Shown here one piece after another: positions 3,521 through 60,102 of a stretch of DNA of 64,000 nucleotides (position 1 is its first letter; the number at the start of each line of letters is the position of its first letter). Below the pieces are notes generated by a model that made no database searches, was not told the DNA's origin, and was given only the letters and a program-made list of their open reading frames with translations. The DNA is taken from positions 22,393 through 86,392 of IMG/VR virus record IMGVR_UViG_3300006099_000006. One strand, given 5' to 3'. Origin of the DNA: a virus. Taxonomy: Duplodnaviria; Heunggongvirae; Uroviricota; Caudoviricetes. The position numbers and the translations under genes were made by a program.

Positions 3521-3558
3521 CCCCGTGGGCCTTAGCCGGCCTGCGGGGCTTTCTTTCT
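3521..3558 (+). terminator. intrinsic terminator
   Basis: CCCCG...CGGGG stem with nested GGCC pairs, followed by TTTCTTTCT. Confidence 0.5.
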
Positions 3559-3605
3559 GTCCTGCGCACATTTTACATCCTCTGTTATGGAAAGGAGGAT
3601 GAATT

Positions 3606-3782
3606 ATGGCATTGAAACTTTATTTGATTGCCGGAATCATAGTCGAAGCTTTTATTCTCAAGGGATATGCTGAAGACGAGGTTCCCTATACAAAAGCTGA
3701 ACTATTTTTTGGCGGCATCATTGACATTCTAACATGGCCGATTGTTCTTCTGGTACACATCATTATTAACGGGGGTCGCTAA
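3606..3782 (+). CDS. small membrane protein, 58 aa
   Basis: RBS GGAAAGGAGG. AT-rich composition, unlike the neighbouring genes (moron-like). Confidence 0.4.
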   Translation: MALKLYLIAGIIVEAFILKGYAEDEVPYTKAELFFGGIIDILTWPIVLLVHIIINGGR

Positions 3783-5137: not shown

Positions 5138-6373
5138 CTATTTTATTTTTTCGATTTCCTGTTTCAACCACTCAAATTCGCGTTGGGTATAGACCTTTTC
5201 GGTGATGTCCGAAATCTTGTGACCGACCATGTACTTGATGGCGTACTCGTCTACGCCGGCTTTTTTGCAGGCTGTGACAAAGTGTTTTCTACCATCATGG
5301 GGACGATGCTCTGGATTTAGTTTCAGCTCATCCCGAACCATACCAAAACCTCTCTGGTATCGTGGGTAGGTCATCATCGTAGGCTTGCCACTTCTGCCAT
5401 CCGTGCAGTTGAAGAGATACTTACTGCCAAGTACGACAGCCTCTTTATATTTACGCTCGATGAGATGCCGTATCTTCGAGTGGATGGGAACGACCCGATC
5501 CATACCGGCATCAGTCTTGATACCGCCTTTGAACGTCCAGTTCTCAAGGTCGATATTCTCCAGCTCCAGCAAGCCGAGTTCTTGAGGGCGCCATCCCGAG
5601 TAGCATTGGATCAGCATGACATCTACAAATCGCTTGTCATCGACATGGAACCAGAGCTGTTCCATCTCTTCTTCGGTGAATGGGATGTGTTCCTGCTTCA
5701 CGGTCTGGATCTCTTTGATAGTTTCCTCGGTGAGATTGAACGTCCGAGAGTAGTTCCGATCGACCAACTCATACTCTAAAGCATAGTCCAGCATGAGATT
5801 GAAAAGAGATTTGATTTTGTTCTTCATGGATGCGCTGGGGCGCTGCTCTTTTCCTCTAACTTTGGCCGTACCCTCTTCCATACAGCCTTTCACATGACGG
5901 GCCCGGACATCCATCACCCGCATATCATAGACAGCCGAACAATAGGCCCAAGCCGATGTAACAGCTCGAATGCTGCCATCCGCTTTAAGGGTCTTGAAAT
6001 ACTCTTCTGACCATTTGTCGTAAAGCTCCCTAACTGTAATGGACGGCTCCAAATCATACGGATTTTTGTTGTACTCTACGAGAGCGGCGTAAGCGTCATT
6101 GTAAGTAGGGAAATAAGATTCCGGTTTCAGAGGCTTACAAATAGGCCGCCCTTCTGGGGTCTTTCCAACCGTAACCATCGCCCGAAAAGGGTTTCGGAGG
6201 TTACGGTTCTTTATTTCACTGATTTGACCAAAGCCATTGGGGAGGCGCCTTCGTTTGTTGCTCTTAACACGGGGTTTTCGTTTTACAGTGGGCTGCATCG
6301 GGTAGCCACAATGAGGGCAGGCCGTAGCCTTATCGCTAACTTGGAGTTCGCATTCAGGGCATTTTATTAACAT
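5138..6373 (-). CDS. int: tyrosine recombinase/integrase, 411 aa, with N-terminal zinc ribbon
   Basis: C-terminal catalytic region HRPHDGRKH...GHKISDITEKVYTQRE carries the R..H..R..Y signature. N-terminal motif CPECE-x11-CPHCG. Confidence 0.9.
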   Translation of the reverse strand: MLIKCPECELQVSDKATACPHCGYPMQPTVKRKPRVKSNKRRRLPNGFGQISEIKNRNLRNPFRAMVTVGKTPEGRPICKPLKPESYFPTYNDAYAALVEYNKNPYDLEPSITVRELYDKWSEEYFKTLKADGSIRAVTSAWAYCSAVYDMRVMDVRARHVKGCMEEGTAKVRGKEQRPSASMKNKIKSLFNLMLDYALEYELVDRNYSRTFNLTEETIKEIQTVKQEHIPFTEEEMEQLWFHVDDKRFVDVMLIQCYSGWRPQELGLLELENIDLENWTFKGGIKTDAGMDRVVPIHSKIRHLIERKYKEAVVLGSKYLFNCTDGRSGKPTMMTYPRYQRGFGMVRDELKLNPEHRPHDGRKHFVTACKKAGVDEYAIKYMVGHKISDITEKVYTQREFEWLKQEIEKIK

Positions 6374-6579: not shown

Positions 6580-6634
6580 CGAATAGCTCCTTTCGCAGGT
6601 TTGGCACCTCCTTTTATGAAGGAGGTTGACTACC

Positions 6635-6847
6635 ATGAAAATAGACAAAAAGTTAATGAACGAGGTTGAAGAGTTGTGGGTTGGCCACGAGGAGGCATTA
6701 ACGCACTTCGGACAAGTATGTGTCGCGGCAGCAAAAGCTGGGCACGATTGCAAAGTGCGAAGACATTTGCGTCTGGGTATGGTTGTAGCCACTGCGGCAA
6801 CTATCATCATTACATGCTGTTTAGATTTGATGAGCGAAACTTACTAA
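6635..6847 (+). CDS. hypothetical protein, 70 aa, divergent from the int operon
   Basis: RBS GAAGGAGG 9 nt upstream of the ATG. The track start at 6626 is a TTG. Confidence 0.45.
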   Translation: MKIDKKLMNEVEELWVGHEEALTHFGQVCVAAAKAGHDCKVRRHLRLGMVVATAATIIITCCLDLMSETY

Positions 6848-6954
6848 AACGGGAGAGGCTCGCGGAAACGCGGGCTCTTTCTTTTATTTTTCCCGTTTAT
6901 TTTGCTTTTCCCGCTATTTCCCTTTGTTTCGCCCTAATAATCATATATGATAGT

Positions 6955-6979
6955 GTAGGAATTGTCAAGTAATTCCTAC
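6955..6979. promoter_or_regulatory. perfect 9-bp inverted repeat GTAGGAATT-N7-AATTCCTAC (operator-like)
   Basis: Seen directly in the sequence, 60 bp upstream of gene 7036. Confidence 0.35.
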
Positions 6980-7035
6980 ATAACTTTTTAACTTAGATTA
7001 GGAAGCTCGTACCTTAGAACAGAAAGGAGTCATGT

Positions 7036-7588: not shown

Positions 7589-7664
7589 TCTAAGGAGGGA
7601 GCGGCTAAACGGCGGCTCTCTTCTTTTCGCCTATTTCGCAGGTCCTTTTACGGAGGTGACTGTT

Positions 7665-7946
7665 ATGGTAATCAGAAATAAAGAATACTACACTCAGTTT
7701 AACGAAGAGATGAAGCGAGACCATAGAGCTTTGGACTACCACATCCGACAGGCAGAGAACTACAAGCGTATCTACCAGCTCACAAAAGGGCGTTCGGGAG
7801 TATATGCCTTACTGAATAAATTTGCTAAGAGGATGAATCAGGTTCATTGTGATAAGGGAACTAAATTAGCGAAGCTGGACATGACGTGGTGCCTTTACGA
7901 AATGATGTACTTACAAAATTACATTCAGAAAGGAGAGGAGCCCTAA
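7665..7946 (+). CDS. array gene 1, hypothetical, 93 aa
   Basis: Preceded by CCTTTTACGGAGGTGA box. The stop codon lies in the loop of the terminator hairpin. Confidence 0.55.
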   Translation: MVIRNKEYYTQFNEEMKRDHRALDYHIRQAENYKRIYQLTKGRSGVYALLNKFAKRMNQVHCDKGTKLAKLDMTWCLYEMMYLQNYIQKGEEP

Positions 7947-8151
7947 CAGGGGCTCTTCCCTTTTGCGCGAATTTAACAACATCCTTTATGGAAAGGTGAA
8001 CATATGCGAGACGGTATGTTCTGAAAAAGGTGTTGCCCTTGAAGGTTTAGCTGACGGCTATCGAGGTACGGAGCAACTTAATGGTTAAACGGCGAGCCGC
8101 CTGTCTTTCTTTTGTTCTCGCAGATTCTGCAAATTCCTTTATGGAGAGGAA
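7942..8151 (+). repeat. 210-bp direct repeat, copy A (terminator hairpin plus two promoter-like boxes)
   Basis: Near-identical to 14590-14798. Confidence 0.7.
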
Positions 8152-8285
8152 ATAAGGGAAACTTTGAAAAGCCAAATTGTAAGACATGGTCGGCAGTTAC
8201 ATTCGCAAGGATGTGGCCCCAATTCATGCCCTCTTTTTTTTGTTTCCGCAGATTTTGCAAATCGTATTATGAGAAGGAGAGGAAA

Positions 8286-8470
8286 TCCGACGGGTTGTGA
8301 CCAAGCAACAAAATTGTTTGGTTTGGATGTTCGACTCATCCACGGCTCGTCTTTCTCTAAGAAAATGGATAGATGCGGGTGGAAATCCCGCGGTGAGACA
8401 CGAAGGCGTACCGCCAAGTAATAACTTAATAAAAGATGGTACCCACCGGGCAACGGTTTTCGTTGGGCCG
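8286..8470 (+). ncRNA. candidate non-coding transcript downstream of the box variant TTTTGCAAATCGTATTATGAGAAGGAG
   Basis: The same box variant drives the tRNA-like gene at 14951. There is no convincing CDS here; a CAACG-GTTTT-CGTTG hairpin and a T-run sit at 8448-8500. Confidence 0.2.
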
Positions 8471-8535
8471 ACCCTGAAGTCATTTTCTTTTTATTTTTCG
8501 CCAAATACTCAACGGCCTTTATGGAGGTGATTGAT

Positions 8536-8736
8536 ATGTTTTTGAACAAAGTTGAATCAATGAGTACAGTCACAAAGAAAGTCATTGACGATTTTAATCG
8601 AATGGATGATAAACAATTTATGGCAAAATATTTTTGCAGTAAGCTGACGTATGCAAAGCGAGTTGCGAAGTATGGTGATCCGTACATGAAAAGTCCACTC
8701 GCTAAAATCGGAAAATTTCTTAATAAAATATTCTGA
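8536..8736 (+). CDS. array gene 2, hypothetical, 66 aa, AT-rich
   Basis: CCTTTATGGAGGTGATTGAT then ATG. Confidence 0.5.
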   Translation: MFLNKVESMSTVTKKVIDDFNRMDDKQFMAKYFCSKLTYAKRVAKYGDPYMKSPLAKIGKFLNKIF

Positions 8737-8971
8737 GGTGAAATCTAAGGAGCATGAAATCACGGAGAAGGGGTGTGTTCGCAGCACCTCTTTTCTTTTC
8801 GCGATTTTTACAAATCGTATTATGGAGAGGAAAAAGAATACCATCGGGTATGAAAGTGAAGAGGCTAAACGTGTGAGTATAAAATCTTTGCGCACATTAG
8901 ATGTCTACACGGAAAGTCGTCTCTCTTTATTTTTCGCCAAATACTCAACGGCCTTTATGGAGGTGATACTT

Positions 8972-9166
8972 GTGGAGACCAAGAAAATTCTTAGCACGAT
9001 TGGAACGTTCGTTATTGTAGGGGCAGTATCAACAGCAGGAGCTGCATTATGGACGAACGTTTTAGATGACAAACTTAAATTGGTTAAAGCGAAGAAAACA
9101 CATTCCAAATCAGACAAAGTAATTGTTGTTGATTTCAAGAAAGCAAGGAGGGACATGAGCCGCTAA
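8972..9166 (+). CDS. array gene 3, 64 aa, membrane protein (GTG start)
   Basis: CCTTTATGGAGGTGATACTT then GTG; one TM helix. An alternative start is the ATG at 8957 inside the box. Confidence 0.45.
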   Translation: METKKILSTIGTFVIVGAVSTAGAALWTNVLDDKLKLVKAKKTHSKSDKVIVVDFKKARRDMSR

Positions 9167-9190
9167 CACAGCGGCTCTCTCTTTTATATT
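9158..9190 (+). terminator. intrinsic terminator GAGCCGC-TAACACA-GCGGCTC followed by a T-run
   Basis: The same stem and loop family recurs at 10205 and 14345. Confidence 0.6.
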
Positions 9191-9230
9191 TTCCGCATAA
9201 AACTCCACGTCCTTTATGGAGGTGAAAGTA

Positions 9231-9506
9231 ATGAGACAAGTCATTCTTTATGGAATTTCTGGAGCAAGTAGGGCCTATACAGTTCTGAATTACTTCTGTA
9301 TCTATGAGGAATTCGTATCGATCAGCACTATCTTAGGGGAAGCGAGGCGACTTCGGATGAGAAATCCGGATATCGAGCACGTTTACGCAATAGATAATCG
9401 ACACGGACTCCGTCGTGATTACAAGGAGAGCATGAAACGGAATAGTATTGAGAGCCATTACATTTTCAAGGATATTCTGGAAAGAGAAGGTATGCGAATT
9501 ATTTAA
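9231..9506 (+). CDS. array gene 4, hypothetical, 91 aa
   Basis: TTCCGCA-N-CCTTTATGGAGGTGAAAGTA then ATG. Confidence 0.55.
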   Translation: MRQVILYGISGASRAYTVLNYFCIYEEFVSISTILGEARRLRMRNPDIEHVYAIDNRHGLRRDYKESMKRNSIESHYIFKDILEREGMRII

Positions 9507-9607
9507 CTACCGAGGAGGGTCCCGGCAGGGACTTTTCCTCTTTCCGCAGGAATGGCAGTTTCCTTTATGAGAGGCTTAGGCTTCATCTGTTATAAGGAGT
9601 GGAAACT

Positions 9608-9769
9608 ATGTTTACAAAATTGGAAATGGTCGGAGCTATTGCTATCAGCCTGTTCGGCGGATTCGCCATCGGCTACAGCAAGGCAAGAGAAATCTGTTTG
9701 CAAGCAATCATCACCGCTACCGGAGAACAGAAGGAACCCGAGACAACCGAGAAGGAGGAGACGCCCTGA
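9608..9769 (+). CDS. array gene 5, small membrane protein, 53 aa
   Basis: RBS AAGGAGTGG. The stop TGA lies inside the terminator stem. Confidence 0.4.
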   Translation: MFTKLEMVGAIAISLFGGFAIGYSKAREICLQAIITATGEQKEPETTEKEETP

Positions 9770-9844
9770 ACAAGGGCTCTCCCTTTTTCGCACAAATCAC
9801 AGTGCCTTTTATGGAAGAATCCATATTTGAAAGGAGAAACAACA

Positions 9845-10186
9845 ATGAGCATGGAAAAGTTCAAAAGGTTTGTAGCTGACCACAAGAAGGAGTTGATTGC
9901 CACTACGGCGGTCGCCGGCGGAATTGTGTTGGTGATCCTCGGGTGTAAGCGCCACAGCGGGAAGATGGCCAAAGGTATATTCAGGAGGAAAGATATTTCG
10001 ATCCCGGATGGCCTCAAGGTCTGGGACACGTCCTACCTCTGGGTGGAGGGAAAGTACCTGAACGCAATCGTCAACCGTATTCCCGTAGACGACCTGGGTG
10101 AACTGGGCAAGCAGTACATCAAGCATGGGCTCGCACAGCCTGGCGACATTGCAAGCGTCGTTATTGGAGTCGAGTACAACAAGTGA
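9845..10186 (+). CDS. array gene 6, membrane-anchored protein, 113 aa
   Basis: Box followed by TATTTGAAAGGAGAAAC then ATG; N-terminal TM helix. Confidence 0.55.
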   Translation: MSMEKFKRFVADHKKELIATTAVAGGIVLVILGCKRHSGKMAKGIFRRKDISIPDGLKVWDTSYLWVEGKYLNAIVNRIPVDDLGELGKQYIKHGLAQPGDIASVVIGVEYNK

Positions 10187-10299
10187 TTCTACCAAAGGTG
10201 GAGGCCGCTAACACAGCGGCTTTTGCCTTTTCACCGAGGTTGTTTGTACTTCGGTGTGGTTGCTAACTTAGAATAGCCGTTGAAAGGAGGTAGTCGTTA

Positions 10300-10551
10300 A
10301 TGAGTGAACAAGAATTTCATCCGGGTTCCGTTCCGGTTGCAGTAGCGGCCAGAGTCTATGGAAAAGATGCGTCTTGGGTTCGAGCCGGCATTGTGTCAGG
10401 ATGGCTTCCGATTGGTAAGGCTACCCGAAACGGTAAACTGGTGACCAGCATCAACGAGATAGACAGCCGGTACGGACGTATCAACTTTTACATCTCGCCC
10501 AAACTCCTCTATGAGGAAACCGGATTTTTATGGAAAGGAGAAAAGCGATAA
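10300..10551 (+). CDS. putative DNA-binding protein, 83 aa (Xis/AlpA-like HTH)
   Basis: RBS GAAAGGAGG. VAARVYGKDASWVRAGI is helix-turn-helix-like. Confidence 0.5.
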   Translation: MSEQEFHPGSVPVAVAARVYGKDASWVRAGIVSGWLPIGKATRNGKLVTSINEIDSRYGRINFYISPKLLYEETGFLWKGEKR

Positions 10552-10552
10552 T

Positions 10553-10972
10553 ATGCCTACAAATGTACGACCCGAAGTATCTAAGAAGAATCCCTATTAC
10601 ATAGAGCGTGAGCGATACTACGAGCTGAAACACTTCTGCCGGCAGTATCCGATTTGGAAGAAAGCTCATGCGGCCCTTGATGGACTGAGCCGGCGACCCG
10701 CTGATTTGGAGCTGTTCAGCGAGACTGGAGAAACAAGTGATCCAACGTTCCGATGCGTAGCGGCCCGTGAACGCTACTCCAGATGGATGGGTATGGTTGA
10801 GCAGTGCGCTCGTGAAGCTGACCCCGAGCTCTACAAGTATCTCATGAGCTATGTCACGAAAGGAGATTGTTACAGCGTTCTCAAAATGCGCGACCATATC
10901 CCCTGCTGCAAGGATGTGTTCTATGAGACGGCCCGTAAGTTCTTTTGGCTCCTTAACAAAGTCCGAGACTGA
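10553..10972 (+). CDS. putative phage transcription regulator, 139 aa (sigma-70 region-4-like C-terminus)
   Basis: RBS AAAGGAGAAAAG. Contains NPYYIERERYYELKHFCRQYP and a C-terminal HTH-like segment. Low specificity. Confidence 0.45.
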   Translation: MPTNVRPEVSKKNPYYIERERYYELKHFCRQYPIWKKAHAALDGLSRRPADLELFSETGETSDPTFRCVAARERYSRWMGMVEQCAREADPELYKYLMSYVTKGDCYSVLKMRDHIPCCKDVFYETARKFFWLLNKVRD

Positions 10973-11040
10973 TTTGGCATCTTCCGCAGAAAATACATCC
11001 GCCTTTATGGAAGACCCAATATTAGAAAGGAGTTTGACTT

Positions 11041-11217
11041 ATGAACCGTCGTTTTAACTGGATGGACAAGCCTGTCACCTGGGGAGGTTACTTTAAGCTG
11101 TGCGGCATTTGCACTGTGGTCGGAACGGCCATCGCTGCGATTGAGCTCATCGTGTTTATGGAGCCCGCCTGGTGGAAGGCTACAAAGAACTTTGTGAGAA
11201 GACTGTTCGACAGATGA
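11041..11217 (+). CDS. array gene, small membrane protein, 58 aa
   Basis: Box followed by ATATTAGAAAGGAG then ATG. Confidence 0.45.
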   Translation: MNRRFNWMDKPVTWGGYFKLCGICTVVGTAIAAIELIVFMEPAWWKATKNFVRRLFDR

Positions 11218-11330
11218 ACTATCGGCATATAGGTCGGCCAAGAGGGAGGTTGTGGAAACACGGCCTCTTCTCTTTTTATATTTTTGCTCGCACAAATTGC
11301 AACGACCTTTATGGAAAGGAGGTTCGATTT

Positions 11331-11510
11331 ATGACTTACAAGCAAATCGAGGCCAGCAGAGAATTGCGACTTTGGATTGGACAGGTAATCGTGCCGGCTG
11401 TTAGTGTGACGGCAGTGGTACTTGCTAATCCTGACGTGAGAAATGCGGCTAAGCAAAAGCTGGATAGCATCAAGCAGAAGTTCCAGTCCAAAAAGATCAG
11501 GGTCGTGTAG
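11331..11510 (+). CDS. array gene, small membrane protein, 59 aa
   Basis: CCTTTATGGAAAGGAGG then ATG; the track end at 11510 matches. Confidence 0.5.
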   Translation: MTYKQIEASRELRLWIGQVIVPAVSVTAVVLANPDVRNAAKQKLDSIKQKFQSKKIRVV

Positions 11511-11625
11511 CAGCGACCCTTTCTTTTATATTTTCCGCATATAGGTGACTGTAATGTGTGGTAAATTGGTATTCTAAAAAATTCCCGGGTGGAAAATTCT
11601 GAAAAACAATTTTAGGAGGCATCCT

Positions 11626-11844
11626 ATGGAAATCGTAATCGCACTCGTAGCCGTCCTTATCGGCTTTATCATCGGTCGAGTCCTTCCCAGAGAGCGCCAC
11701 CTTGGCGATTTGCGGGTTGACAGGTCTGACCCGACTTGTGAGCCCTATCTTTTTCTTGAACTGGGTACGGATGTCCGTAACGTCATGAGTAAGCGGCACG
11801 TTACATTTCGCGTCAAAGTCGAAAACTTCCTGCCGCACGAATAA
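11626..11844 (+). CDS. hypothetical, 72 aa, N-terminal TM helix
   Basis: RBS TAGGAGG. Confidence 0.55.
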   Translation: MEIVIALVAVLIGFIIGRVLPRERHLGDLRVDRSDPTCEPYLFLELGTDVRNVMSKRHVTFRVKVENFLPHE

Positions 11845-11894
11845 CACCCGCTATTATGGAGCCCAACTCTAATATTTGAAAGGAGTAAAGCAAT

Positions 11895-12581
11895 ATGGCA
11901 GAGATCAAAAGTTTGTTGGACGGCGTGATCGAGCAGGAAATCCAAAACGTGGAGGCCCTGAGCTCTGGATCTGACGAGAAGTCGAAGGCGATCCAGAATC
12001 TCGCAACCCTGCACAAACTCCGTATCGAGGAGATCAAGGCCGAGACCGAGGCGGAAGAGAAGCGTGAACGCCGGGTTATGGACAGCGAGCAGCGTAAAGC
12101 GGAACTCGCTCTGAAAGAAAAGCAGGCTACCCAGCAGGAGACCCAGCATCAGGCTGAACTCTCTATCAAGGAGCGCCAGGTGGATAGTGCCGAGGCAGAA
12201 CGTAAGATGAAGGACGAACAGTTCAAAGCTGAACTCGCCCTGAAGAAGCGTCAAGCCGACGGCGACACCGCTGAGCACAAGTTGAAAGAGAAGCAGAGTG
12301 AGACTGAGTATAAGCACAAGGGTGCCGAGCTTGCTCTGAAGGAGCGGGAACTGGATAGCAAAGACGCTGACCGGACCCAGGAAGGAGAGCTTCAGAAGCG
12401 CCAGGCCAGGGATCAGATGATTGACCGGTGCGTGAGGACTGGTGTGGCGGTTGGAGAACTGGTGTTGCCGTTGGTGTTCTACGGCATCTGGATGAACAAA
12501 GGTTTCAAGTTCGAGGAAACCGGTTCGTTCACGTCGACCACATTCAAGAACTTGCTGAATCGCTTCAGACCCACGAAGTAA
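11895..12581 (+). CDS. coiled-coil repeat protein, 228 aa, with four KAELALKEKQ-type repeats and a C-terminal TM helix
   Basis: RBS GAAAGGAG. Internal ~19-aa repeats; C-terminal hydrophobic helix. Confidence 0.65.
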   Translation: MAEIKSLLDGVIEQEIQNVEALSSGSDEKSKAIQNLATLHKLRIEEIKAETEAEEKRERRVMDSEQRKAELALKEKQATQQETQHQAELSIKERQVDSAEAERKMKDEQFKAELALKKRQADGDTAEHKLKEKQSETEYKHKGAELALKERELDSKDADRTQEGELQKRQARDQMIDRCVRTGVAVGELVLPLVFYGIWMNKGFKFEETGSFTSTTFKNLLNRFRPTK

Positions 12582-12751
12582 AGGGTAAGGCTACAAAAGC
12601 GGAGAGGGCGCGGAGATTTCGCGCTCTTTTCGTTTTCGCCATTTCTACAGCGCTCTTTATGAGGAAGAAGAGCTCTTTTACCTCGACTATCGGTCGGAAG
12701 TGGAGTATAATACTGTACAACACTTCTGGACTACATCAGGAGGTAATGAAA

Positions 12752-13081
12752 GTGCGTAAAAAGGGTAAAGAGATCATTCGGCCGGAGGGAATTGAGATCA
12801 GCGAGTATCTCAATGACGGCTGGGGCATCTGCAACAACTGCGGGGCGCTGATGGATGAGGAAATCAGGAATAGAATTGGAGTATTCACCTGCCCAGCATG
12901 TGGCTGGGAGTGCGATGTTATGGATTATGAGTACGAGGAGGAAGACACTATGGAACTCGTACAGGATGAAAGAGGTGACAACTATCTGATTCCGAAAGGA
13001 GGTATGCCGCCCGCTGGGTGCAGAGCTTGTGGAGGTCCGTATCCCCACTGCAAAACATCTTGCAAGATGTATGACGACTAA
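12752..13081 (+). CDS. Cys-rich zinc-finger protein, 109 aa (GTG start; alternative ATG at 12746)
   Basis: Multiple CxxC pairs. The upstream promoter-like sequence TCGACT-N17-TATAAT contains a perfect -10 hexamer. Confidence 0.5.
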   Translation: MRKKGKEIIRPEGIEISEYLNDGWGICNNCGALMDEEIRNRIGVFTCPACGWECDVMDYEYEEEDTMELVQDERGDNYLIPKGGMPPAGCRACGGPYPHCKTSCKMYDD

Positions 13082-13175
13082 GCATTATCAAAATGGAGGA
13101 GAGCCCTGGAAAAGCCGGGGCTCTTTCTCTTTTGCGCAGGTAAAACAGCTCACTTTATGAAAGGGGTTGATATGC

Positions 13176-13322
13176 ATGAAGAAATTAAAAATTAGCTTTT
13201 GGACGCGCGTCGTTGTTTTAGGGTGCTTCATTAGCGATGTTGGTGATAGCATTGTTAATAAGGCACTCGATAGGCTAGACGACATCCAAAAAGCGGATTG
13301 GCTGCGTTTATACAACCGTTGA
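13176..13322 (+). CDS. small protein, 48 aa, AT-rich
   Basis: RBS AAAGGGG. Weak call. Confidence 0.3.
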   Translation: MKKLKISFWTRVVVLGCFISDVGDSIVNKALDRLDDIQKADWLRLYNR

Positions 13323-13386
13323 AAGATCGAGCCTGCGGAAACGTGGGCTCTTTCTCTTTTATTTCTGAACTTGTGAGGAAATCGTT

Positions 13387-13746
13387 ATGCGCTATCATTT
13401 CGAGAAGCCGGTTATATCGCTGTCAATGTACGGCAGGCGATACACTTGTAATCATCCGGTGTATGACAGCTGTACCTTGTTCGAGATTGACGAAAAGGGT
13501 TTAGCTGTGATACAGCAGAGATTCAACGCAAAGACAAAGAGTACGTCTTGGACGGAGGTCGATGCCTATTTAACTGACGTTTTATATTTGCATCCCAAGT
13601 TCAAGGAGTTCTTTGACAGTCGGGCCGGAGCTTGTACGGACGGTCTTTACCCCACTGTAACAATTCGACAAATCATGTGGGCGTTGAAGATGAAACCTTT
13701 GCCAAAGCAAAAGTGGGAGACCGTGTTCGACCGTTCGCCGATTTGA
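13387..13746 (+). CDS. hypothetical, 119 aa
   Basis: RBS GTGAGGAAA. Confidence 0.55.
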   Translation: MRYHFEKPVISLSMYGRRYTCNHPVYDSCTLFEIDEKGLAVIQQRFNAKTKSTSWTEVDAYLTDVLYLHPKFKEFFDSRAGACTDGLYPTVTIRQIMWALKMKPLPKQKWETVFDRSPI

Positions 13747-13772
13747 CAGAGCGGTTTATGGAGGTGATATTT

Positions 13773-14012
13773 GTGGCTAATAGAATCGTAAAGATTAAAG
13801 TCCGCATTGATTCGGAAAAATTAAGAAAAATATTTTGAGAGAAGTCATCGATACGAAAAGCGGACAAGCCCGGAGTTTGTTCAGAAAAAACCATAAGGAG
13901 AGGACTGGAAACCGGCTTGCTCACTGTCGATACCGTCGCTTATCTCGCCTATCATCTTGGGGTAAATCCGGAATCATTTGCGGACATTGACGGCTATTTT
14001 GTGGAGCTGTGA
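13773..14012 (+). pseudogene. XRE-family HTH reading frame interrupted by an in-frame TGA at 13836-13838
   Basis: Reading through the TGA gives ...LRKIF*EKSSIRKADKPGVCSEKTIRRGLETGLLTVDTVAYLAYHLGVNPESF. This has an HTH_XRE helix 2-3 signature. Upstream box: TTTATGGAGGTGA then GTG. Confidence 0.35.
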
Positions 14013-14118
14013 CATTACATCAACCATTGGGAAGGGCCTTGACGCGGGCTCTTCTTTATTTTACCGCCAATTCCACAGCTCCTATTATGGACCAATACCA
14101 TGAAAGGGGTTAAGGAGC

Positions 14119-14334
14119 ATGGATGAGATGAAAATTGAATCAAAATGGACGAGAGGAATTGCGTCGATCCTTATTGGAAAGGCCATGCGTAAAAAGTTGG
14201 GTTACGACGTTGACGTCCAACTCAACCATTTTCGCACAACCATTCTTGAGGAGAAGGCACATGTCCACTTGGACATTGATTTGGAACTCTCAAAAGAGGA
14301 ACTTGACAAACTGTTAAAGAGCATTGGTCTCTGA
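14119..14334 (+). CDS. hypothetical, 71 aa
   Basis: RBS AAGGAG. Confidence 0.55.
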   Translation: MDEMKIESKWTRGIASILIGKAMRKKLGYDVDVQLNHFRTTILEEKAHVHLDIDLELSKEELDKLLKSIGL

Positions 14335-14408
14335 GGTCGGAGCCGCGTAACAGCGGCTTTTGCCTTTGATCCGCAAGATATTCATGCCATATTATGGAGG
14401 TGATCGCT

Positions 14409-14735
14409 ATGAGATTTGACAGCAAAAAGGTATTCAAGTTTGCAGGAGAAGTTAGCGGTTGTGTCGTCATGGGAATTGTTTCAGCGGCAACGCAGACGCT
14501 TTGGTACAGAATCGCAGAACCCAAGATACTTAATGCTATGGACAAAAATGAGGCAAAGCGAAAGCGGCCAATAGGTTTTAGGGGGGGGCCTAACAGGGGC
14601 TCTTCCCTTTTGCGCGAATTTAACAACATCCTTTATGGAAAGGTGAACATATGCGAGACGGTATGTTCTGAAAAAGGTGTTGCCCTTGAAGGTTTAGCTG
14701 ACGGCTATCGAGGTACGGAGCAACTTAATGGTTAA
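14409..14735 (+). CDS. array gene, membrane protein. The C-terminus probably read-through caused by a G8 tract.
   Basis: Box TATTATGGAGGTGATCGCT then ATG. The frame runs through the non-coding repeat copy B. One extra G would restore a TAA at the position homologous to the stop of gene 7665. Confidence 0.4.
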   Translation: MRFDSKKVFKFAGEVSGCVVMGIVSAATQTLWYRIAEPKILNAMDKNEAKRKRPIGFRGGPNRGSSLLREFNNILYGKVNICETVCSEKGVALEGLADGYRGTEQLNG

Positions 14736-14798
14736 ACGGCGAGCCGCCTGTCTTTCTTTTGTTCTCGCAGATTCTGCAAATTCCTTTATGGAGAGGAA
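14590..14798 (+). repeat. 210-bp direct repeat, copy B
   Basis: Near-identical to 7942-8151. The hairpin stem GAGCCC is replaced by a G8 run at 14582-14589. Confidence 0.7.
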
Positions 14799-14950
14799 GA
14801 ACCTGAGAAGGATACGAAATGCGTCTTTAGGCCAACCGAGCGCCCTTGAAAAGGGACTGAGAAGTTACGAAATGCGCCCTAAAGCCAACCGAATGTTCAA
14901 CCTCTCTAATGTTTTCACCTTCCGCAGATTTTGCAAATCGTATTATGGAG

Positions 14951-15023
14951 AGGAAGTTAGCTCAGTTGGTAGAGCGACGGGTGAAATTCCCGTAGGTCAT
15001 CGGTTCGAGTCCGATACAGCCTC
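14951..15023 (+). tRNA. tRNA-like gene with a canonical D-arm and T-arm but a non-canonical anticodon loop and acceptor stem
   Basis: D-arm is TAGCTCAGTTGGTAGAGC and T-arm is ATCGGTTCGAGTCCGAT. The anticodon stem ACGGG/CCCGT carries loop TGAAATT, which lacks U33. The acceptor stem pairs at 5 of 7 positions. It is preceded by the TTTTGCAAATCGTATTATGGAGAGG box. Confidence 0.45.
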
Positions 15024-15050
15024 TCTAAATTTTTTTTGAGAAGGGATATA

Positions 15051-16134: not shown

Positions 16135-16959
16135 GTGAAACCCAAGAAAAGTCTGGTAAACCGGGCGGGAAAAGCTTTGAAACGGGCGTCGCCAACCATA
16201 CTGAGTTGTCTCGGTGCTTTTGGTGTAGTGGCGACTGCGATCCTGGCAATCAAAGCAACGCCCAAAGCCCTTGAGTGCATCGAGGACGCAAAAGAAACAA
16301 AAAGCCCCGGAAATGGCGAAAACCTGACCCGATTGGAGACGATAGCGGCTTGCTGGCAATGCTACATCCCTGCCACAGTCACTGGAATCGCTACAATCGG
16401 GTGTATTTTCGGCGCAAATGTGCTGAATCGCCGTCAGCAGGCCTCTCTCACCAGCGCCTACGCCCTGCTCAACCGAACGTACCAGGACTATCAGAAGTCT
16501 GTGAAAAACGTATTCGGCGAGGAAGGACATCGGCGTGTTTTGGAGGACATGGCCATTGAGCGGGTCTCTGAAAATCACACGATTTATACTCAGGGATCGT
16601 TTGAATGCACCACGCTGGATTTCTGCGTCTCTGAGGAGGAGCATCTCTTCTACGACACCTACTCTGACCGGCAGTTCGCATCAACCATCGGAAAGGTTCT
16701 CCAGGCCGAGTATCATTTGAACAGGATGTTCGCCCTTAACGGTAATGCATCGCTCAATGACTTCTATAAGTACCTGGGCCTCGGCCCTGTTACGGACGGG
16801 GACGACATCGGATGGTGGGTCGACCCCAATGAAGAAATTTACTGGGTCGAGTTCAACCATTCCGTTGCCCACATCGACGATGGCCCCGAGCGGCCTCAGG
16901 TGGACTGCCTTATCATCGAATTTCCTCATCCTCCGTGTCCGGCTCCTCCCGATTGGTAA
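16135..16959 (+). CDS. membrane protein, paralog A, 274 aa (GTG start)
   Basis: RBS AAGGAGG. Basic N-terminus, a TM helix, then conserved ATPKAL and W.CY.PA.VTG motifs shared with 17539 and 19530. Confidence 0.65.
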   Translation: MKPKKSLVNRAGKALKRASPTILSCLGAFGVVATAILAIKATPKALECIEDAKETKSPGNGENLTRLETIAACWQCYIPATVTGIATIGCIFGANVLNRRQQASLTSAYALLNRTYQDYQKSVKNVFGEEGHRRVLEDMAIERVSENHTIYTQGSFECTTLDFCVSEEEHLFYDTYSDRQFASTIGKVLQAEYHLNRMFALNGNASLNDFYKYLGLGPVTDGDDIGWWVDPNEEIYWVEFNHSVAHIDDGPERPQVDCLIIEFPHPPCPAPPDW

Positions 16960-17004
16960 TCCGCAAAAATGACATCCTCTATTGTGGAAAGGAGGTAAGG
17001 CTTC

Positions 17005-17178
17005 ATGGATAAGAAAGCCATCTTTAGAGTAATGTCCATGATCGGAATGGTCCTTGGGGCGGCGGGAACGCTGCTGTCCAACTGGGCCGACGATCGTGAA
17101 CTCAACATGACGATTGACGAGAAGATCGATGAAAAGCTTGCCGCCCGTGAGAGCGAAGAAGAAAGTGAGGAGCCCTGA
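17005..17178 (+). CDS. small membrane protein, 57 aa, with acidic tail
   Basis: RBS GGAAAGGAGG. The stop lies in the loop of a GAGCCCTGACAGGGGCTC hairpin. Confidence 0.45.
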   Translation: MDKKAIFRVMSMIGMVLGAAGTLLSNWADDRELNMTIDEKIDEKLAARESEEESEEP

Positions 17179-17215: not shown

Positions 17216-17518
17216 ATGAACGAGCGGGCACTTGCGGCAATCGGTCAGGTTCTGGAAGGTTACACGGAGCCTCCCGGACTTGATTGGCCGAAACACGAAA
17301 AAGAAGAGGTCACATTTTCACACTGGGCGCTGGACGAAATCTTGCTCCTGGTGTGGGATCATCCGTGGACACTTGCATCTGAAACCATCGAAGCATTTGC
17401 CATGAAGCTGGAGGTCTTTGCGGCGACGGCCGTATCAGAAGACCAACGGCGGATATTTGCTGTCGCGGCCGAGACAGCTTGGGAGATGCTTGAAGAGGTT
17501 CAGTTGCTGGAATTTTAA
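17216..17518 (+). CDS. hypothetical, 100 aa
   Basis: Internal ATG of track ORF 17114-17518, located after the terminator. Confidence 0.5.
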   Translation: MNERALAAIGQVLEGYTEPPGLDWPKHEKEEVTFSHWALDEILLLVWDHPWTLASETIEAFAMKLEVFAATAVSEDQRRIFAVAAETAWEMLEEVQLLEF

Positions 17519-17538
17519 TGCTTGAAAGGAGAAGCAGC

Positions 17539-18300
17539 GTGAACAAGCAAACCATCGCCAAGGCGCTTAAGGATATTCCGAAGATCTTGAAACGGCATAG
17601 TCCTGAGCTCCTGACAGGCATCGGCATCGCCGGGATGATATTTACGACCATTTCGGCGGTGAAAGCCACCCCCAAAGCGCTTCAGCTCGTGGACGAACGG
17701 GAAATCAAGGAAGGAAAGCGCCTGACAAACTCCGAGATCGTCAAGACTACCTGGAAGTGCTACGTCCCCGCCGCCGTTACCGGGGTATGCTCTGTCGGGT
17801 GTCTGATCGGAGCAAGTTCTGTCAACGCGCGGCGCAATGCCGCCCTTGCCACGGCCTACACCATCTCTGAAACTGCTCTTAAGGAGTATAAAGAGAAAGC
17901 GGTCGAGGTCGTCGGCGAAAAGAAGGAACAGGCGATCCGGGATGCGGTCGCCAAGGAGAAGCTGGAAAAAGCGCATGTTAAAGAGCGGGAGTTCATCATC
18001 ACTGGGAAAGGTGAAACTCCCTGTTTTGACCCGCTTACCAATGCCTGCTTCAAGTCGGATATCGAGACCATCCGAAAAGCGGAAAACATCCTGAACAAAC
18101 GAATGCGGGATGAGATGCAGATCACGGTCAACGACTTCTTACAGGAGCTCGGCCTTGATCCTTGTGATGATGCCATCGGCGACAAGATGGGCTGGGACAT
18201 CGACAAGGGTTACATTGATCTGGACTTCAGCTCGCAGCTGGTCGATGGCATTCCCTATTTGGTCATCGGCCACCACAATCCGCCGAGATACCTCGGCTGA
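17539..18300 (+). CDS. membrane protein, paralog B, 253 aa (GTG start)
   Basis: RBS GAAAGGAGAAG then GTG. Same architecture as 16135 and 19530. Confidence 0.65.
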   Translation: MNKQTIAKALKDIPKILKRHSPELLTGIGIAGMIFTTISAVKATPKALQLVDEREIKEGKRLTNSEIVKTTWKCYVPAAVTGVCSVGCLIGASSVNARRNAALATAYTISETALKEYKEKAVEVVGEKKEQAIRDAVAKEKLEKAHVKEREFIITGKGETPCFDPLTNACFKSDIETIRKAENILNKRMRDEMQITVNDFLQELGLDPCDDAIGDKMGWDIDKGYIDLDFSSQLVDGIPYLVIGHHNPPRYLG

Positions 18301-18373
18301 CAGCATCCGCAAAAATAGCATTTCCTATTATGGAGAGATCCACATTACAATACTTTGATAAAGGAGAATCATC

Positions 18374-18667
18374 ATGGAAGAGAACACTGTGAAGACCAAT
18401 GAGATCGAGGAGTATGAGCAGCCTGAGACCGAGGTCGAGGAGGCCCTGGAGGAGAGCTCCGGCAGCGGCGCGTTCGTCGCGGGCATCGTCGGTGGCTTCT
18501 TGGCCTACGCCGCTATCGGCGGGGTGAAGAAGCTGGTGACGTTCGCCCAGATGAAGTGGGCCGAGCGGAAGCAGAAGGAGGCGGCCAAGACCGTGATCGA
18601 CGCCGAGTACACCGCGGTCGAGGAGGAGCAGGATGAGCCCGAGGAGGAAGCTCCTGAGGAGAAGTAA
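18374..18667 (+). CDS. acidic membrane protein, 97 aa
   Basis: RBS AAAGGAGAA. Confidence 0.55.
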   Translation: MEENTVKTNEIEEYEQPETEVEEALEESSGSGAFVAGIVGGFLAYAAIGGVKKLVTFAQMKWAERKQKEAAKTVIDAEYTAVEEEQDEPEEEAPEEK

Positions 18668-19381: not shown

Positions 19382-19489
19382 ATGTGCGGATACCACACCT
19401 CGTTTGGATACAAAGGCCTGGTCAATGGCGAGTGGATGCTCTTCACTACCGAGGCCGAGTATCATGAGTATCTGCGTGAACTCAAGTAA
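19382..19489 (+). CDS. mini-protein, 35 aa
   Basis: RBS GAGGAGGG then ATG. Low confidence. Confidence 0.3.
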   Translation: MCGYHTSFGYKGLVNGEWMLFTTEAEYHEYLRELK

Positions 19490-19529
19490 ATCATCCAACA
19501 ACACAATCCGAAAGGAGTATATTTTAACC

Positions 19530-20492
19530 ATGAAAAAGAACGAGCTTATGAAGTCTGCGAGTCGGACTTTCAACAAGATCGGTTTCCAGATCCAGAAGAA
19601 GAGCCCTGAGCTCCTGGTTGCGGCCGGGATCGCCGGTATCGTCGTCAGCACCGTCATGGCGTGTAAGGCCACCATCAAGGCCTGCGAAGTTGCCGAGGAG
19701 GCCAAGGATACCATCGACGAGATCCACGAGATCGAGGAGAAGGGCGTCACCCGGGCCGGCAACACCTACTCCGCCGATGATGCCAAGAAGGATCTCACCA
19801 CCGCCTATCTCCAGACCGGCGTCAAGTACGTCAAGCTGTATGCCCCCGCTATCGTTGTGGGCGCGGCGTCTGTTTCCTGCATCCTGGTAAGCCACAAGAT
19901 GATGAAGCAGCGCATGGCTGCTGTTGCGGCGGCCCTCTCCGCCACGGACAAGGCCTTTAAGGACTACCGCGGCCGCGTTATGGAGCGTTTCGGCGAGCAG
20001 GTCGAGAAGGAGCTCCGCTACAACATCAAGGCCCAAGAGATCGAGCATACCGTTACCACCGAGAAGGGCAAGGAGAAGAAGATCAAAGAGGTGGCCGACG
20101 TGCCTGCGGTTGAGGGCTGGGACCCGTCTCAGTACAGCCCTTATGCGCGGAGATTTGACGAGACCAATCCGGCGTGGAACCGGGACCCCGAAATGACCCG
20201 CTATTATTTAAGGGCCCGCCAGTCCCAGGCCTGCGACATGCTTCGCTCCCGCGGCCATCTGTTCCTCAACGAGGTGTATGATATGCTGGGCTTCCCCCGC
20301 ACAAAGGCCGGTGCTGTTGTTGGGTGGCTGTACGATCCCAAGCGGCCTGAGCTGGGTGACTGCTATGTGGATTTCGGCATGTTCGAGATTCAGCAGGAAG
20401 ACGGTGTCGGCGGCTATGGCCAGTCCTTCATCCTTGACTTCAACGTCGTCGGCGATATTACGAACGACCTCGTCGACCATCAGTATGTTTGA
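19530..20492 (+). CDS. membrane protein, paralog C, 320 aa
   Basis: RBS GAAAGGAG; N-terminal segment SPELLVAAGIAGIVVSTVMACKAT. Confidence 0.65.
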   Translation: MKKNELMKSASRTFNKIGFQIQKKSPELLVAAGIAGIVVSTVMACKATIKACEVAEEAKDTIDEIHEIEEKGVTRAGNTYSADDAKKDLTTAYLQTGVKYVKLYAPAIVVGAASVSCILVSHKMMKQRMAAVAAALSATDKAFKDYRGRVMERFGEQVEKELRYNIKAQEIEHTVTTEKGKEKKIKEVADVPAVEGWDPSQYSPYARRFDETNPAWNRDPEMTRYYLRARQSQACDMLRSRGHLFLNEVYDMLGFPRTKAGAVVGWLYDPKRPELGDCYVDFGMFEIQQEDGVGGYGQSFILDFNVVGDITNDLVDHQYV

Positions 20493-32837: not shown

Positions 32838-32911
32838 TTTGCAAGTCCTATTACGGAGGAGATGCTACATAGCGTCTTCTTTTATATTTTTATGAAAGGA
32901 GGCGTACTGCC

Positions 32912-46410: not shown

Positions 46411-46550
46411 TTGATATTTCTTTGGCTCCATGTTACAATGACCTTATACACATTCAAGGAGGTGTTAAGGTCATAGCCGGGGAAATCAAAAGCGGAGCTC
46501 AGTCTTCTGCGCAGAAAAAGCAACCCCCTTTATGGAAGGAGGTGAATGAC

Positions 46551-59955: not shown

Positions 59956-59989
59956 GAGCAGAGATGTCTTAGCTGGCATCTCTGTTTTT
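59956..59989 (+). terminator. intrinsic terminator CAGAGATG...CATCTCTG followed by T8
   Basis: Seen directly. Confidence 0.6.
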
Positions 59990-60102
59990 TTTCGGCTCTT
60001 TTTGGCTTCCGCCAAAAAAACAGACTCTTTTATGGAGAGAAGAGGGAATGTGTCGCACAATTCCTGTTTTTTCTATTATTTCTGTCGAAAGGAGGCCTTT
60101 TT

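Follow-up and report, generated by a model that had tools for sequence, protein, structure and literature searches.

A repeated terminator and box module that accompanies a phage-encoded two-barrel RNA polymerase: a candidate promoter and recombination junction in phages of Gram-positive bacteria

Between positions 7590 and 15030 of the 64,000-nucleotide stretch of IMG/VR record IMGVR_UViG_3300006099_000006 that we have analyzed (the window, from a tailed phage), small genes follow one another in a single orientation, most of them behind a GC-rich hairpin, a T-rich tail and a conserved box. A preliminary description, made from the letters of the DNA, compared this array with the PeSL modules of T4-like phages and suggested that the box may be a promoter for a phage-specific sigma factor and perhaps also a hotspot for the shuffling of cassettes. 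The locus thus raises the question of which enzyme reads the box and of what else the repeats might do. The explanation that accounts best for the data, and that we regard as fairly probable, is that hairpin and box form a family-wide promoter/terminator module for a two-barrel RNA polymerase (RNAP) of the phage itself, a 903-residue protein encoded at 60984-63695, and that the module doubles as a recombination junction.

The box and its register relative to RNA 5' ends

The repeated unit opens with a GC hairpin and its T-rich tail, continues with TTYCGCR and, after 15 bases that vary, ends in (C)CTTTATGG or TATTATGG; the CGCV-N15-TTTATG spacing is constant across copies. The box itself is described in the window by a consensus of ∼28 bp, (T-run)-CGCR-N7-CA-N4-N-[T/C][A/T]T[A/T]AT-G. 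Matches to the loose pattern CGCV-N15-HTTAYR number 28 in the window, compared with 3.15 ± 1.94 (largest value 9) in 100 shuffles of the 64-kb sequence, with 27 on the + strand and a single one on the - strand; two of the 28, at 2307 on the + strand and 19662 on the - strand, were judged not to be true boxes. A position weight matrix (PWM) derived from box copies gives 26 sites above threshold on the + strand of the window and none on the - strand, and the 15-mer CCTTTATGGAGGTGA of the preliminary description occurs 11 times with three or fewer mismatches versus an expectation of 1.65. Twenty-one boxes lie inside the array, the majority directly 3' of a hairpin and T-run, with further boxes at 3565, 6594, 18308, 32831, 46510 and 60010 and a weak one at 16962; the structural genes are without any. 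We read these 26-28 co-oriented boxes as one regulon that includes the array of small genes and RNAs, the replication block and the polymerase operon. The small ORFan and membrane proteins, non-coding RNAs (ncRNAs) and tRNA-like RNA of the array have probable host-takeover functions.

Terminator-like hairpins are also in excess, with 36 between 3 and 19 kb as opposed to 16.1 expected, and most boxes have a hairpin and T-run 5-20 nt upstream. Three hairpins, at 10203-10221, 11499-11520 and 13329-13350, are followed by no box or by a decayed one. Pattern counts, PWM and hairpin mapping together bear out the repeated array of hairpins and boxes that had been described; the two stems quoted then were located at 9157-9177 and 13329-13350, and the box copies given outside the array at 46521-46549 and 59985-60040 are real, the sites themselves being 46510-46534 and 60010-60034. 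Other parts of that description need to be modified. A hairpin and box before every small open reading frame (ORF) is the rule for most, with boxes 10985, 13736 and 14923 lacking the hairpin, and the placement of GGAGGTGA 4-7 nt before the start codon is correct for six cassettes in which the Shine-Dalgarno (SD) sequence is fused to the box and incorrect for the others, where the SD is 20-45 nt further on; a separate SD downstream of the box was noted in 13 cassettes. Nor are the cassettes uniformly monocistronic, since several units carry two or three genes, or uniformly protein coding, since about seven have no credible ORF and a third of the payloads are RNAs.

The tRNA-like gene (14947-15036 with its U-run; ARAGORN 14950-15025, Rfam tRNA 47.5 bits) places the box relative to an RNA 5' end. 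The gene abuts the last array box, 14923-14947, which was located by pattern and ARAGORN and has no upstream hairpin, and a gene of this kind follows the last array box in Faecalibacterium phage FP_oengus and in nine IMG/VR relatives as well. In all 11 phages it begins 0-5 nt past the G directly 3' of the hexamer (0-2 nt in nine, 5 nt in two), and in the window it starts 2-3 nt past TATTATG. BLAST homology of the tRNA-like RNA among 22 relatives begins exactly at the predicted +1 G. A sigma-70 -10 element at the hexamer would put +1 4-7 nt inside this RNA, so that a -10 of the sigma-70 type is excluded, and the register implies that conserved sequence reaches the start site, a property of promoters that phage-encoded polymerases use.

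The geometry of the remaining copies was examined in the same light. A TTGACA-like hexamer is missing at 16-18 bp 5' of the box hexamer, most box copies read CTTTAT and have no A at hexamer position 2, and a scan with the sigma-70 consensus touches 3 of the 21 array boxes, those at 14065 and 14372 and an overlap at 13736, where the site (13743-13771) reads TTGACA-17-GATATT and its GATATT is downstream of the box hexamer. A sigma-70 promoter reading of the box was rejected on this geometry and on the tRNA-like register. The register, the polarity of the copies and their conservation between phages all support the suggestion that the box is a promoter, and we consider it very probable that +1 is the G after the hexamer. 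Starts would then be at G or GG directly 3' of the TATAAT-like hexamer, for example at 14947/14948.

The non-coding payloads, about seven in number, are 7990-8112, its duplicate 14637-14760, 8143-8243, 8271-8495, 8824-8931, 14790-14912 and the tRNA-like RNA, 14947-15026. Four short RNAs fold with a 5' GGAGAGG paired to CCUCUC directly before the U-run, and the tRNA-like RNA, whose 5' GGAGAGG begins at the predicted +1, pairs it with CCUCUCU. An Rfam scan of the array (E ≤ 1) returned the tRNA-like gene as its sole significant match, the ncRNA cassettes matching nothing, and the fold z-scores of these cassettes are unremarkable save for 8271-8495 (z = -2.8). The 135-nt 3' part of the latter, cassette C (8359-8495), is 92-95% identical in 17 relatives, where it has its own box and where the adjoining genes are just ∼70-77% identical. 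The tRNA-like RNA closes every array, with loci in relatives at L091 9680-9768, L093 9893-9983, L105 8990-9064, L113 7948-8022 and L001 2935-3006. Its D and T arms are conserved and its anticodon stem covaries among relatives; the anticodon loop is non-canonical, with G33 in the window and 6-8 nt in relatives, for whose genes ARAGORN gives 'anticodons' of 2 or 4 nt. A role as a decoy or as a tRNA of the frameshift type is conceivable.

The 903-residue polymerase and its association with the box

The preliminary description had named two candidates for a sigma factor that might read the box. One of them, gene 10553, was rejected, having no sigma-70 or other Pfam domain (E ≤ 0.01) and belonging to a PHROG of unknown function. 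The other, the 903-residue protein, proved a good pointer, although to an RNA polymerase with helix-turn-helix (HTH) domains, as indicated by fold and catalytic motif, in place of a sigma factor. Pfam recognizes HTH domains at both ends of the protein, two N-terminal repeats (about 36-137) and a C-terminal one (868-902), and nothing else, while PHROGs places the whole chain in phrog_4291, 'RNA-dependent RNA polymerase' (E = 0). The sequence SGADFDGD at residues 515-522 (SGADFDGDQ) constitutes a DxDGD-type catalytic loop; 87 homologues, 44-55% identical to the window protein, show no change at S515-D518 or D520-D522 and hardly any at F519, and the motif is kept in eight distant homologues too. 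An AlphaFold (AF2) model computed from the homologue alignment has a predicted local distance difference test (pLDDT) score of 87.8 and a predicted template modeling score (pTM) of 0.81. Foldseek comparison of the model with the PDB gives QDE-1 (E = 2e-8), plant RDR2 (E = 1.6e-6) and the non-virion RNAP (nvRNAP) gp62 of Thermus phage P74-26 (E = 2.5e-6), with probability 1.0, and then the largest subunits of multisubunit RNAPs. Searches of the PDB with phmmer and hmmsearch gave HTH matches only and an hhalign comparison with YonO of phage SPbeta was negative (probability 0.2); the best BLASTP alignment to YonO pairs SGADFDGDQ with FDNDGDK. As judged from the modeled fold and the motif, the protein is a two-barrel single-subunit RNAP of the QDE-1/YonO type and not a sigma factor, and DNA-dependent, promoter-specific RNA synthesis may be expected of it.

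In the record of Lactococcus phage 1706 (EU081845.1) the depositors labeled the homologous orf75 a 'structural protein', so that the polymerase may be injected. The same label is attached to gp106 of Rhodococcus phage ReqiPoco6, citing its likeness to 1706 gp75. In the work of Garneau et al. of 2008 such labels reportedly came from sodium dodecyl sulfate polyacrylamide gel electrophoresis (SDS-PAGE) and liquid chromatography-tandem mass spectrometry (LC-MS/MS) of virions. Delivery of the polymerase with the virion is conceivable, and we place it somewhat short of an even chance. Residues 1-34 of the polymerase (60984-61085) are predicted to be disordered (pLDDT below 50) and are the most conserved stretch outside of the active site; several residues of HYG..SGRYPWGSG..PYQH are invariant in the 87 homologues. 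The N-terminus might serve in packaging, in ejection or in the binding of a partner.

This family is widespread, forming 896 clusters (50% identity, E ≤ 1e-30), and is common in human-gut viromes. By tblastn the polymerase is encoded in 250 phage records, Faecalibacterium, Arthrobacter, Gordonia, Streptomyces, Lactococcus and Rhodococcus phages among them. The nearest isolate of the window phage is FP_oengus, a siphovirus, which together with the presence of an integrase agrees with the initial view of a temperate phage of a Gram-positive host. Koert et al. had connected the proteins of FP_oengus, 1706 and actinophage clusters by HHpred to a YonO/crAss-like polymerase with terminal HTHs (bioRxiv 10.1101/842583), in a paper from which the word promoter is absent. 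In the literature on promoters of YonO-like or FP_oengus-type polymerases, on repeats of Arthrobacter cluster AM, on 1706 and on ReqiPoco6 we found the motif undescribed, an earlier mention in Garneau 2008 or Summer 2011 being possible. The polymerase of the supercluster formed by 1706, FP_oengus, Arthrobacter AM-AU, Streptomyces BI, Gordonia and Rhodococcus phages is so far merely a bioinformatic 'putative RNA polymerase', with no activity or promoter reported.

Searching for the motif across related genomes, as had been proposed, showed that the box is not private to the window phage; it is conserved across a supercluster of Firmicutes and Actinobacteria phages and is present in FP_oengus (ACGCGAAAAATACAgccTCCTTTATGG, 10 copies), Arthrobacter phage Circum (CGCGTAAATTACAnGGGCTATAATG, 9 copies), 1706 (CGCATGTTTTACATAcaCTATAGTAG, 12 copies), Streptomyces phage Scap1 (TCGCAAGTTTTACAgccTCTATAGTG, 6 copies) and ReqiPoco6, where a 6.7-kb stretch has one copy 5' of the polymerase operon. 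For the GC-rich genome of Scap1, three exact pattern matches compare with 0.02 expected. The architecture and register are equal in these five phages, with the family consensus CRCR-N7-CA-N4/5-[T/C][A/T]T[A/T][A/G]T-purine(+1), and the initially transcribed sequence varies, as for example GAGACCCC in Scap1. In the window, the five phages and >90 IMG/VR loci the box is nearly always on the gene strand, and 23 related arrays hold 8-23 boxes each with none on the - strand. The five phages all encode a homologue of the 903-residue protein. In nearly all of the 80 IMG/VR relatives surveyed, and in four of the five phages (the exception being 1706), a box is found 930-970 nt 5' of the polymerase gene; 3' of this gene it is almost never seen. 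Overall, boxes head the conserved endonuclease/exonuclease/polymerase operon, the small-gene array and parts of the replication block, and almost never structural genes. Outside the polymerase family, a scan of SPbeta (50 kb) gave no match with one pattern and one unrelated minus-strand match with a looser one.

The conservation of two upstream elements across two host phyla, in genomes of ∼34-67% GC, argues for a reader that is encoded by the phage, and because the polymerase is the only conserved DNA-binding protein that fits this role we infer that it reads the box, which on this comparison of sequences seems likely. In the mechanism that we propose the 903-residue RNAP, of QDE-1/YonO/P23-45 gp64 type, and not the sigma-A RNAP of the host, would recognize the ∼28-bp box, its N- and C-terminal HTH domains binding duplex CGCR (about -24) and CA (about -13) and the AT-rich hexamer melting at -6 to -1. 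Transcripts would open with GGAG(A/G)G, which would act as SD in the mRNAs of six cassettes; in the short RNAs it would form the 5' side of a closing stem, and these RNAs would end at the CCUCUC side of that stem and its U-run. A polymerase injected along with the DNA could fire the boxes independently of the host and, its own gene being box-driven, would generate positive feedback. The repeated modules of 40-60 bp would at the same time be substrates for homologous recombination, with cassettes being exchanged, deleted, copied or acquired at the boxes. The identity of the enzyme, the role of its HTH domains, virion delivery and early timing are the elements of this scheme that we infer.

When the 1.5 kb 3' of the polymerase gene were searched in 10 relatives for a further promoter motif, of a 'late' kind, nothing consistent emerged. 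One relative, L065, has a ∼450-nt non-coding gap with GC-rich hairpins (13000-13458) between the polymerase module and the first structural genes, paralleling the ncRNA gap after yonO/yonN in SPbeta, whose equivalent in Goe14 is annotated as a 'skipping-rope' RNA; no motif in common was detected.

Cassette turnover and competing readings

The preliminary description had proposed a comparison of cassette content between related phages, and we have compared the arrays of 23 relatives, fetched through the gene just 3' of the array. Clustering of payloads reveals turnover as opposed to identical gene order, in the form of a collinear backbone along which whole cassettes are present or absent even where the flanking gene is 94% identical. 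In pairwise BLAST comparisons with the two closest relatives, homology breaks at 7978, 8105, 8241, 8927, 13132 and 13733/44, and also at 14059/60, 14399, 14642, 14798 and 14919/20. Box intervals make up 10% of the region and contain 13 of the 17 breakpoints, a score that 100,000 random placements never reached; the proposed recombination hotspot is thereby supported. One and a half cassettes are duplicated internally (7932-8150 versus 14589-14798). Because whole cassettes are gained and lost, between near-identical relatives, and breakpoints are at boxes, the array behaves like the PeSL modules of T4, as was suggested for these ORFans from the start. PeSLs have been described as 'small, composite terminator/promoter sequences' that mediate indels in the hyperplastic regions of T4-like phages (Comeau 2014, PMC4122927; see also Arbiol 2010, PMC2839356), and in both systems a composite terminator/promoter is repeated between ORFans with indel or replacement junctions at the motif. 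The analogy is a functional one, membership failing because PeSL promoters are host sigma-70 early promoters, in Gram-negative myoviruses, whereas the box is without sigma-70 geometry, accompanies a phage two-barrel RNAP and is conserved over phages of two phyla, with RNAs as a third of its payloads.

The proposal that the polymerase reads the box must be weighed against others. It is improbable, in our estimation, that the box is an early promoter for host RNAP with its housekeeping sigma factor, the phage polymerase serving box-free late genes in the manner of YonO, which transcribes late genes only (PMC5467207). The 3' element does fit TAnnnT in Circum, 1706, Scap1 and the TATTAT copies of the window, the boxes lead genes that are expected to be early, the polymerase gene itself among them, and the cassettes are followed by classical hairpin and U-run terminators. 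However, there is no -35 at 16-18 bp, the key A is absent from most window and FP_oengus copies, which read CTTTAT, at most 3 of the 21 array boxes fit in the sigma-70 scan, and a sigma-70 start would truncate the tRNA-like RNA of 11 phages. Moreover, CGCR-N7-CA is kept between Actinobacteria and Firmicutes phages, whose sigma-A promoters have only the -10 in common. Gram-positive phages commonly encode sigma factors or appropriators (SPO1 gp28, ArpU/RinA-type activators), and with many uncharacterized small proteins in the array one of these, for example the product of gene 10553, might redirect the core RNAP of the host. This, too, we find unlikely, since gene 10553 is without a Pfam match at E ≤ 0.01 or a PHROG of known function and, being itself a box-led member of the variable array, could not set the cascade going, since such a factor would need to engage the core enzymes of two phyla, and since the tRNA-like register disfavors any sigma-type -10 geometry. 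Among genes found supercluster-wide, furthermore, the HTH-bearing polymerase is reported and a sigma-like protein is not (bioRxiv 10.1101/842583).

Two further readings deny the box a primary role in transcription. The repeats could be integron-like recombination sites of the adjacent tyrosine recombinase, with any promoter role incidental, given that the integrase is encoded on the opposite strand just 5' of the co-oriented array, that breakpoints coincide with the repeats and that an inverted repeat ends each cassette. The hairpins are, however, simple GC stems with T-tails, without the R''/R' cores or paired RYYYAAC/GTTRRRY sites of integrons, boxes are also present at a distance from the integrase, where they head the operons for replication and the polymerase, and their register is fixed relative to RNA 5' ends. 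The lytic phages Circum, 1706 and Scap1 have arrays and no annotated integrase in the stretch examined (the whole genome for Scap1 only), on which ground an integron-like array was rejected; we assign this reading a very small probability. Smaller still is the chance that the conserved 3' half is a 5' untranslated region or ribosome binding module, GGAGGTGA, that is copied with the genes and carries no transcription signal. The perfect SD that it provides 4-7 nt before the start codon of six cassettes would be so explained, but seven of the payloads behind boxes, the tRNA-like gene among them, are non-coding, conservation reaches 24 nt upstream of the SD, 13 cassettes have their separate downstream SD, and hexamer and upstream elements are kept where the initial transcribed sequence differs, as in Scap1.

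Several points weigh against transcription from the box by the phage polymerase. With the polymerase gene behind its own box, a polymerase that is not injected, or an induced prophage, needs some other start, and no host-type promoter for the polymerase gene was identified. The hexamer of Circum, 1706 and Scap1, TATAAT or TATAGT, matches a sigma-70 -10 fully or almost fully, and to judge from its sequence use by host RNAP is possible, at least in these phages. Start site and enzyme are both assigned from sequence for all members of the family, the relation of the modeled protein to YonO is one of fold class and catalytic motif, and the 'structural protein' label of 1706, a database annotation taken without its source paper, hints at virion delivery. 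Lastly, a hairpin with a U-run is the classical termination signal of bacterial RNAP, and YonO, the one relative from a bacterial phage that has been characterized, is without domains usually required for the response to such terminators (PMC5467207). One hairpin loop is conserved across phyla and might mark a termination or RNA-processing signal specific to the polymerase. This loop, (C)TAACA(C/A), recurs in terminator hairpins of the window phage, Circum and Scap1; in the window it is found in 8 of 54 + strand and 0 of 28 - strand hairpins, among them those at 7938-7955, 9157-9177, 10203-10221, 14340-14362 and 14588-14606, and in fetched loci at L003 17306-17342 and 17967-18003 and L114 23369-24057. 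The hairpins of FP_oengus favor GAAA loops.

Among known systems, the closest parallels to a box-reading phage polymerase come from the two-barrel RNAPs of phage P23-45, each of which uses its own conserved motif 5' of pre-early and early genes, the virion enzyme firing conserved pre-early promoters (bioRxiv 10.1101/2022.12.01.518664). The P23-45 virion RNAP (vRNAP) gp96 and nvRNAP gp64 and gp66 of crAss phage phi14:2 (bioRxiv 10.1101/2020.03.07.982082) are QDE-1-like as is the window enzyme, and P23-45 likewise has a strongly conserved motif repeated before co-oriented pre-early or early genes, a polymerase gene included; virion delivery is another possible likeness. The window enzyme belongs, by contrast, to a separate protein family (about 10-12% identity, structure-based) with HTHs at both ends, the P23-45 motif is unrelated in sequence as far as its description in the text goes, and the window phage, a siphovirus, is temperate and has a Gram-positive anaerobe as its host. 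If the polymerase is packaged and injected the arrangement matches that of N4, crAss-like phages and P23-45.

YonO resembles the window enzyme in being a single-chain RNAP with a DxDGD metal motif from a temperate Firmicutes phage. The two differ in that YonO has no detectable sequence-profile similarity to it and serves one promoter and one long late operon, compared with ∼28 putative promoters here, which head early and replication genes but no structural ones. One YonO-dependent start, 5' of yonK, was mapped by Forrest et al., who did not define its promoter (PMC5467207). A single TTTATG lies between the primer-extension primers, within GATAATAGTCATTTATGAGGGTG, in a block that is conserved in divergent SPbeta-like phages, unlike its upstream flank. 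The sequence GATAATrGTCATTTATGAGGGT in this start-mapping interval resembles TCCTTTATGGAGG, a lead to which we attach little weight; the published start, 2225998 in B. subtilis 168, was not placed on the TTTATG, an exact-match contig scan being empty and the primer positions compatible.

Promoters of the T7 type (CACTATAGGGAGA in T7 itself) are likewise contiguous motifs of ∼25 bp that end AT-rich against a +1 G and are phage-specific and orthogonal to the host, a likeness seen in CACTATAGTAGA of 1706 and CTATAGTGAGA of Scap1. The polymerases differ, with a two-barrel fold here and a Pol I-like right hand in T7, and the box extends to about -24 with two separated upstream elements.

The broadest form of our proposal is that a virion-delivered two-barrel RNAP with HTH domains and its box are maintained near-unchanged across siphoviruses of Actinobacteria and Firmicutes, providing orthogonal early transcription with its own hairpin terminators (CTAACAM/GAAA loops) and modules that turn over their cargo; we hold this to be almost, though not quite, an even proposition. 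If the polymerase does read the box, Gram-positive phages would offer a compact, single-protein transcription system orthogonal to the host, the expression of variable arrays of small membrane proteins would be explained, and there would be a second independent case, beyond T4 PeSLs, of regulatory modules driving cassette shuffling. The logic of lysogeny would be simple, lytic promoters staying silent without the phage polymerase; because the host could not read them, silencing one gene would keep the whole prophage program off. The 28-bp candidate promoter with its predicted +1 would be directly testable in vitro.

Contents of the array and its surroundings

The array proper comprises 21 box-led units with protein, ncRNA and tRNA-like payloads (7590-15036; from reading, PWM and pattern), and all boxes and terminators given below are on the + strand. 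Its protein cassettes encode 48-228 residues, and of nine array proteins that were tested none has a Pfam domain; PHROG matches, all of unknown function, were obtained for six of them and not for the other three. In the first part of the array a box with fused SD (7628-7652) leads ORF 7665-7946 (93 residues), near whose end is the terminator GAGCCC-TAACA-GGGGCTC with T-run (7938-7955). Boxes 7966-7990, 8119-8143 and 8247-8271 then lead the non-coding cassettes A, B (GGAGAGG...CCCUCU and U-run) and C, starting at 7990, 8143 and 8271, respectively, and box 8800-8824 leads non-coding cassette D (8824-8931). SD-fused boxes are found at 8499-8523, before ORF 8536-8736 (66 residues), at 8935-8959, before ORF 8972-9166 (64 residues, with a transmembrane (TM) segment), and at 9194-9218, before ORF 9231-9506 (91 residues); the terminator GAGCCGC-TAACACA-GCGGCTC with T-run (9157-9177) precedes the last of these. 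ORF 9608-9769 (53 residues, TM) is led by box 9545-9569 and is followed by GCCCT-GAACA-AGGGC with T-run (9763-9777).

In the central part, box 9789-9813 heads a unit consisting of ORF 9845-10186, the boxless hairpin GGCCGC-TAACACA-GCGGCT with T-run (10203-10221) and ORFs 10300-10551 and 10553-10972, and box 10985-11009, without an upstream hairpin, leads ORF 11041-11217 (58 residues, TM). A terminator with GAAA loop and T-run (11244-11269) is followed by box 11289-11313, ORF 11331-11510, a hairpin with T-run (11499-11520), a decayed box and ORF 11626-11844. The 3' end of the latter ORF is overlapped by box 11834-11858, which leads ORF 11895-12581 (228 residues), and box 12637-12661 leads the Cys-rich ORF 12746-13081 (111 residues). 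Beyond a terminator with T-run at 13098-13126, box 13135-13159, also a recombination junction, leads ORF 13176-13322, the terminator GAGCCTGCG-GAAA-CGTGGGCTC (13329-13350, with a homology breakpoint at 13351) and ORF 13387-13746.

In the last part, an SD-fused box without hairpin (13736-13760) overlaps the 3' end of ORF 13387-13746 and precedes short or disrupted ORFs (13773-14012). A terminator with T-run (14029-14056) is followed by box 14065-14089 and ORF 14119-14334 (71 residues), and SD-fused box 14372-14396 leads an ORF from 14409. Box 14613-14637 leads the duplicate of cassette A (14637-14760), 14589-14798 matching 7932-8150, and box 14766-14790 leads non-coding cassette E (14790-14912), which has a GGAGAGG...CCUCUCU closing stem. 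A run of eight G's (14575-14600), before the duplicated hairpin, shifts the frame of the stop of ORF 14409 relative to the parental 7940-7946; it is either a duplication frameshift or a homopolymer sequencing error.

Outside of the array, box CGCACATTTTACATCCTCTGTTATG (3565-3589, PWM 35.7) follows a terminator at 3521-3548 and leads a 58-residue TM ORF (3606-3782). Box 6594-6618, the first rightward candidate promoter beside the divergent integrase module, has no upstream hairpin and leads ORF 6635-6847. The weak box-like site 16962-16986 (PWM 10.0) is before ORF 17005-17178, box 18308-18332 before ORF 18374-18667 and the replication gene block, and a box-like site with TATTACG (32831-32855) before the DNA ligase gene (32912-34213). 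Box 46510-46534, found by PWM and pattern, has no upstream hairpin, and box 60010-60034, ∼950 nt 5' of the polymerase gene, heads the operon 60103-60420/60417-60980/60984-63695.

On the - strand at 6940-6981 a near-consensus sigma-70 promoter (TTGACA-17-TATGAT) overlaps a palindrome with 13-bp arms (GTGTAGGAATTGT...ACAATTCCTACAT-like). It faces a small leftward gene and the integrase gene (5138-6373), antisense to the first box-driven cassette, and is probably a host-read lysogeny promoter with its operator. Right after the array are three paralogous DUF6353 genes (16135-16959, 17518-18300 and 19404-20492), and FP_oengus likewise has three. An ORF at the end of the late region (100-960) has a sub-threshold match to RVT_1, 26.8 bits versus a cutoff of 29.6, and may be part of a diversity-generating retroelement.

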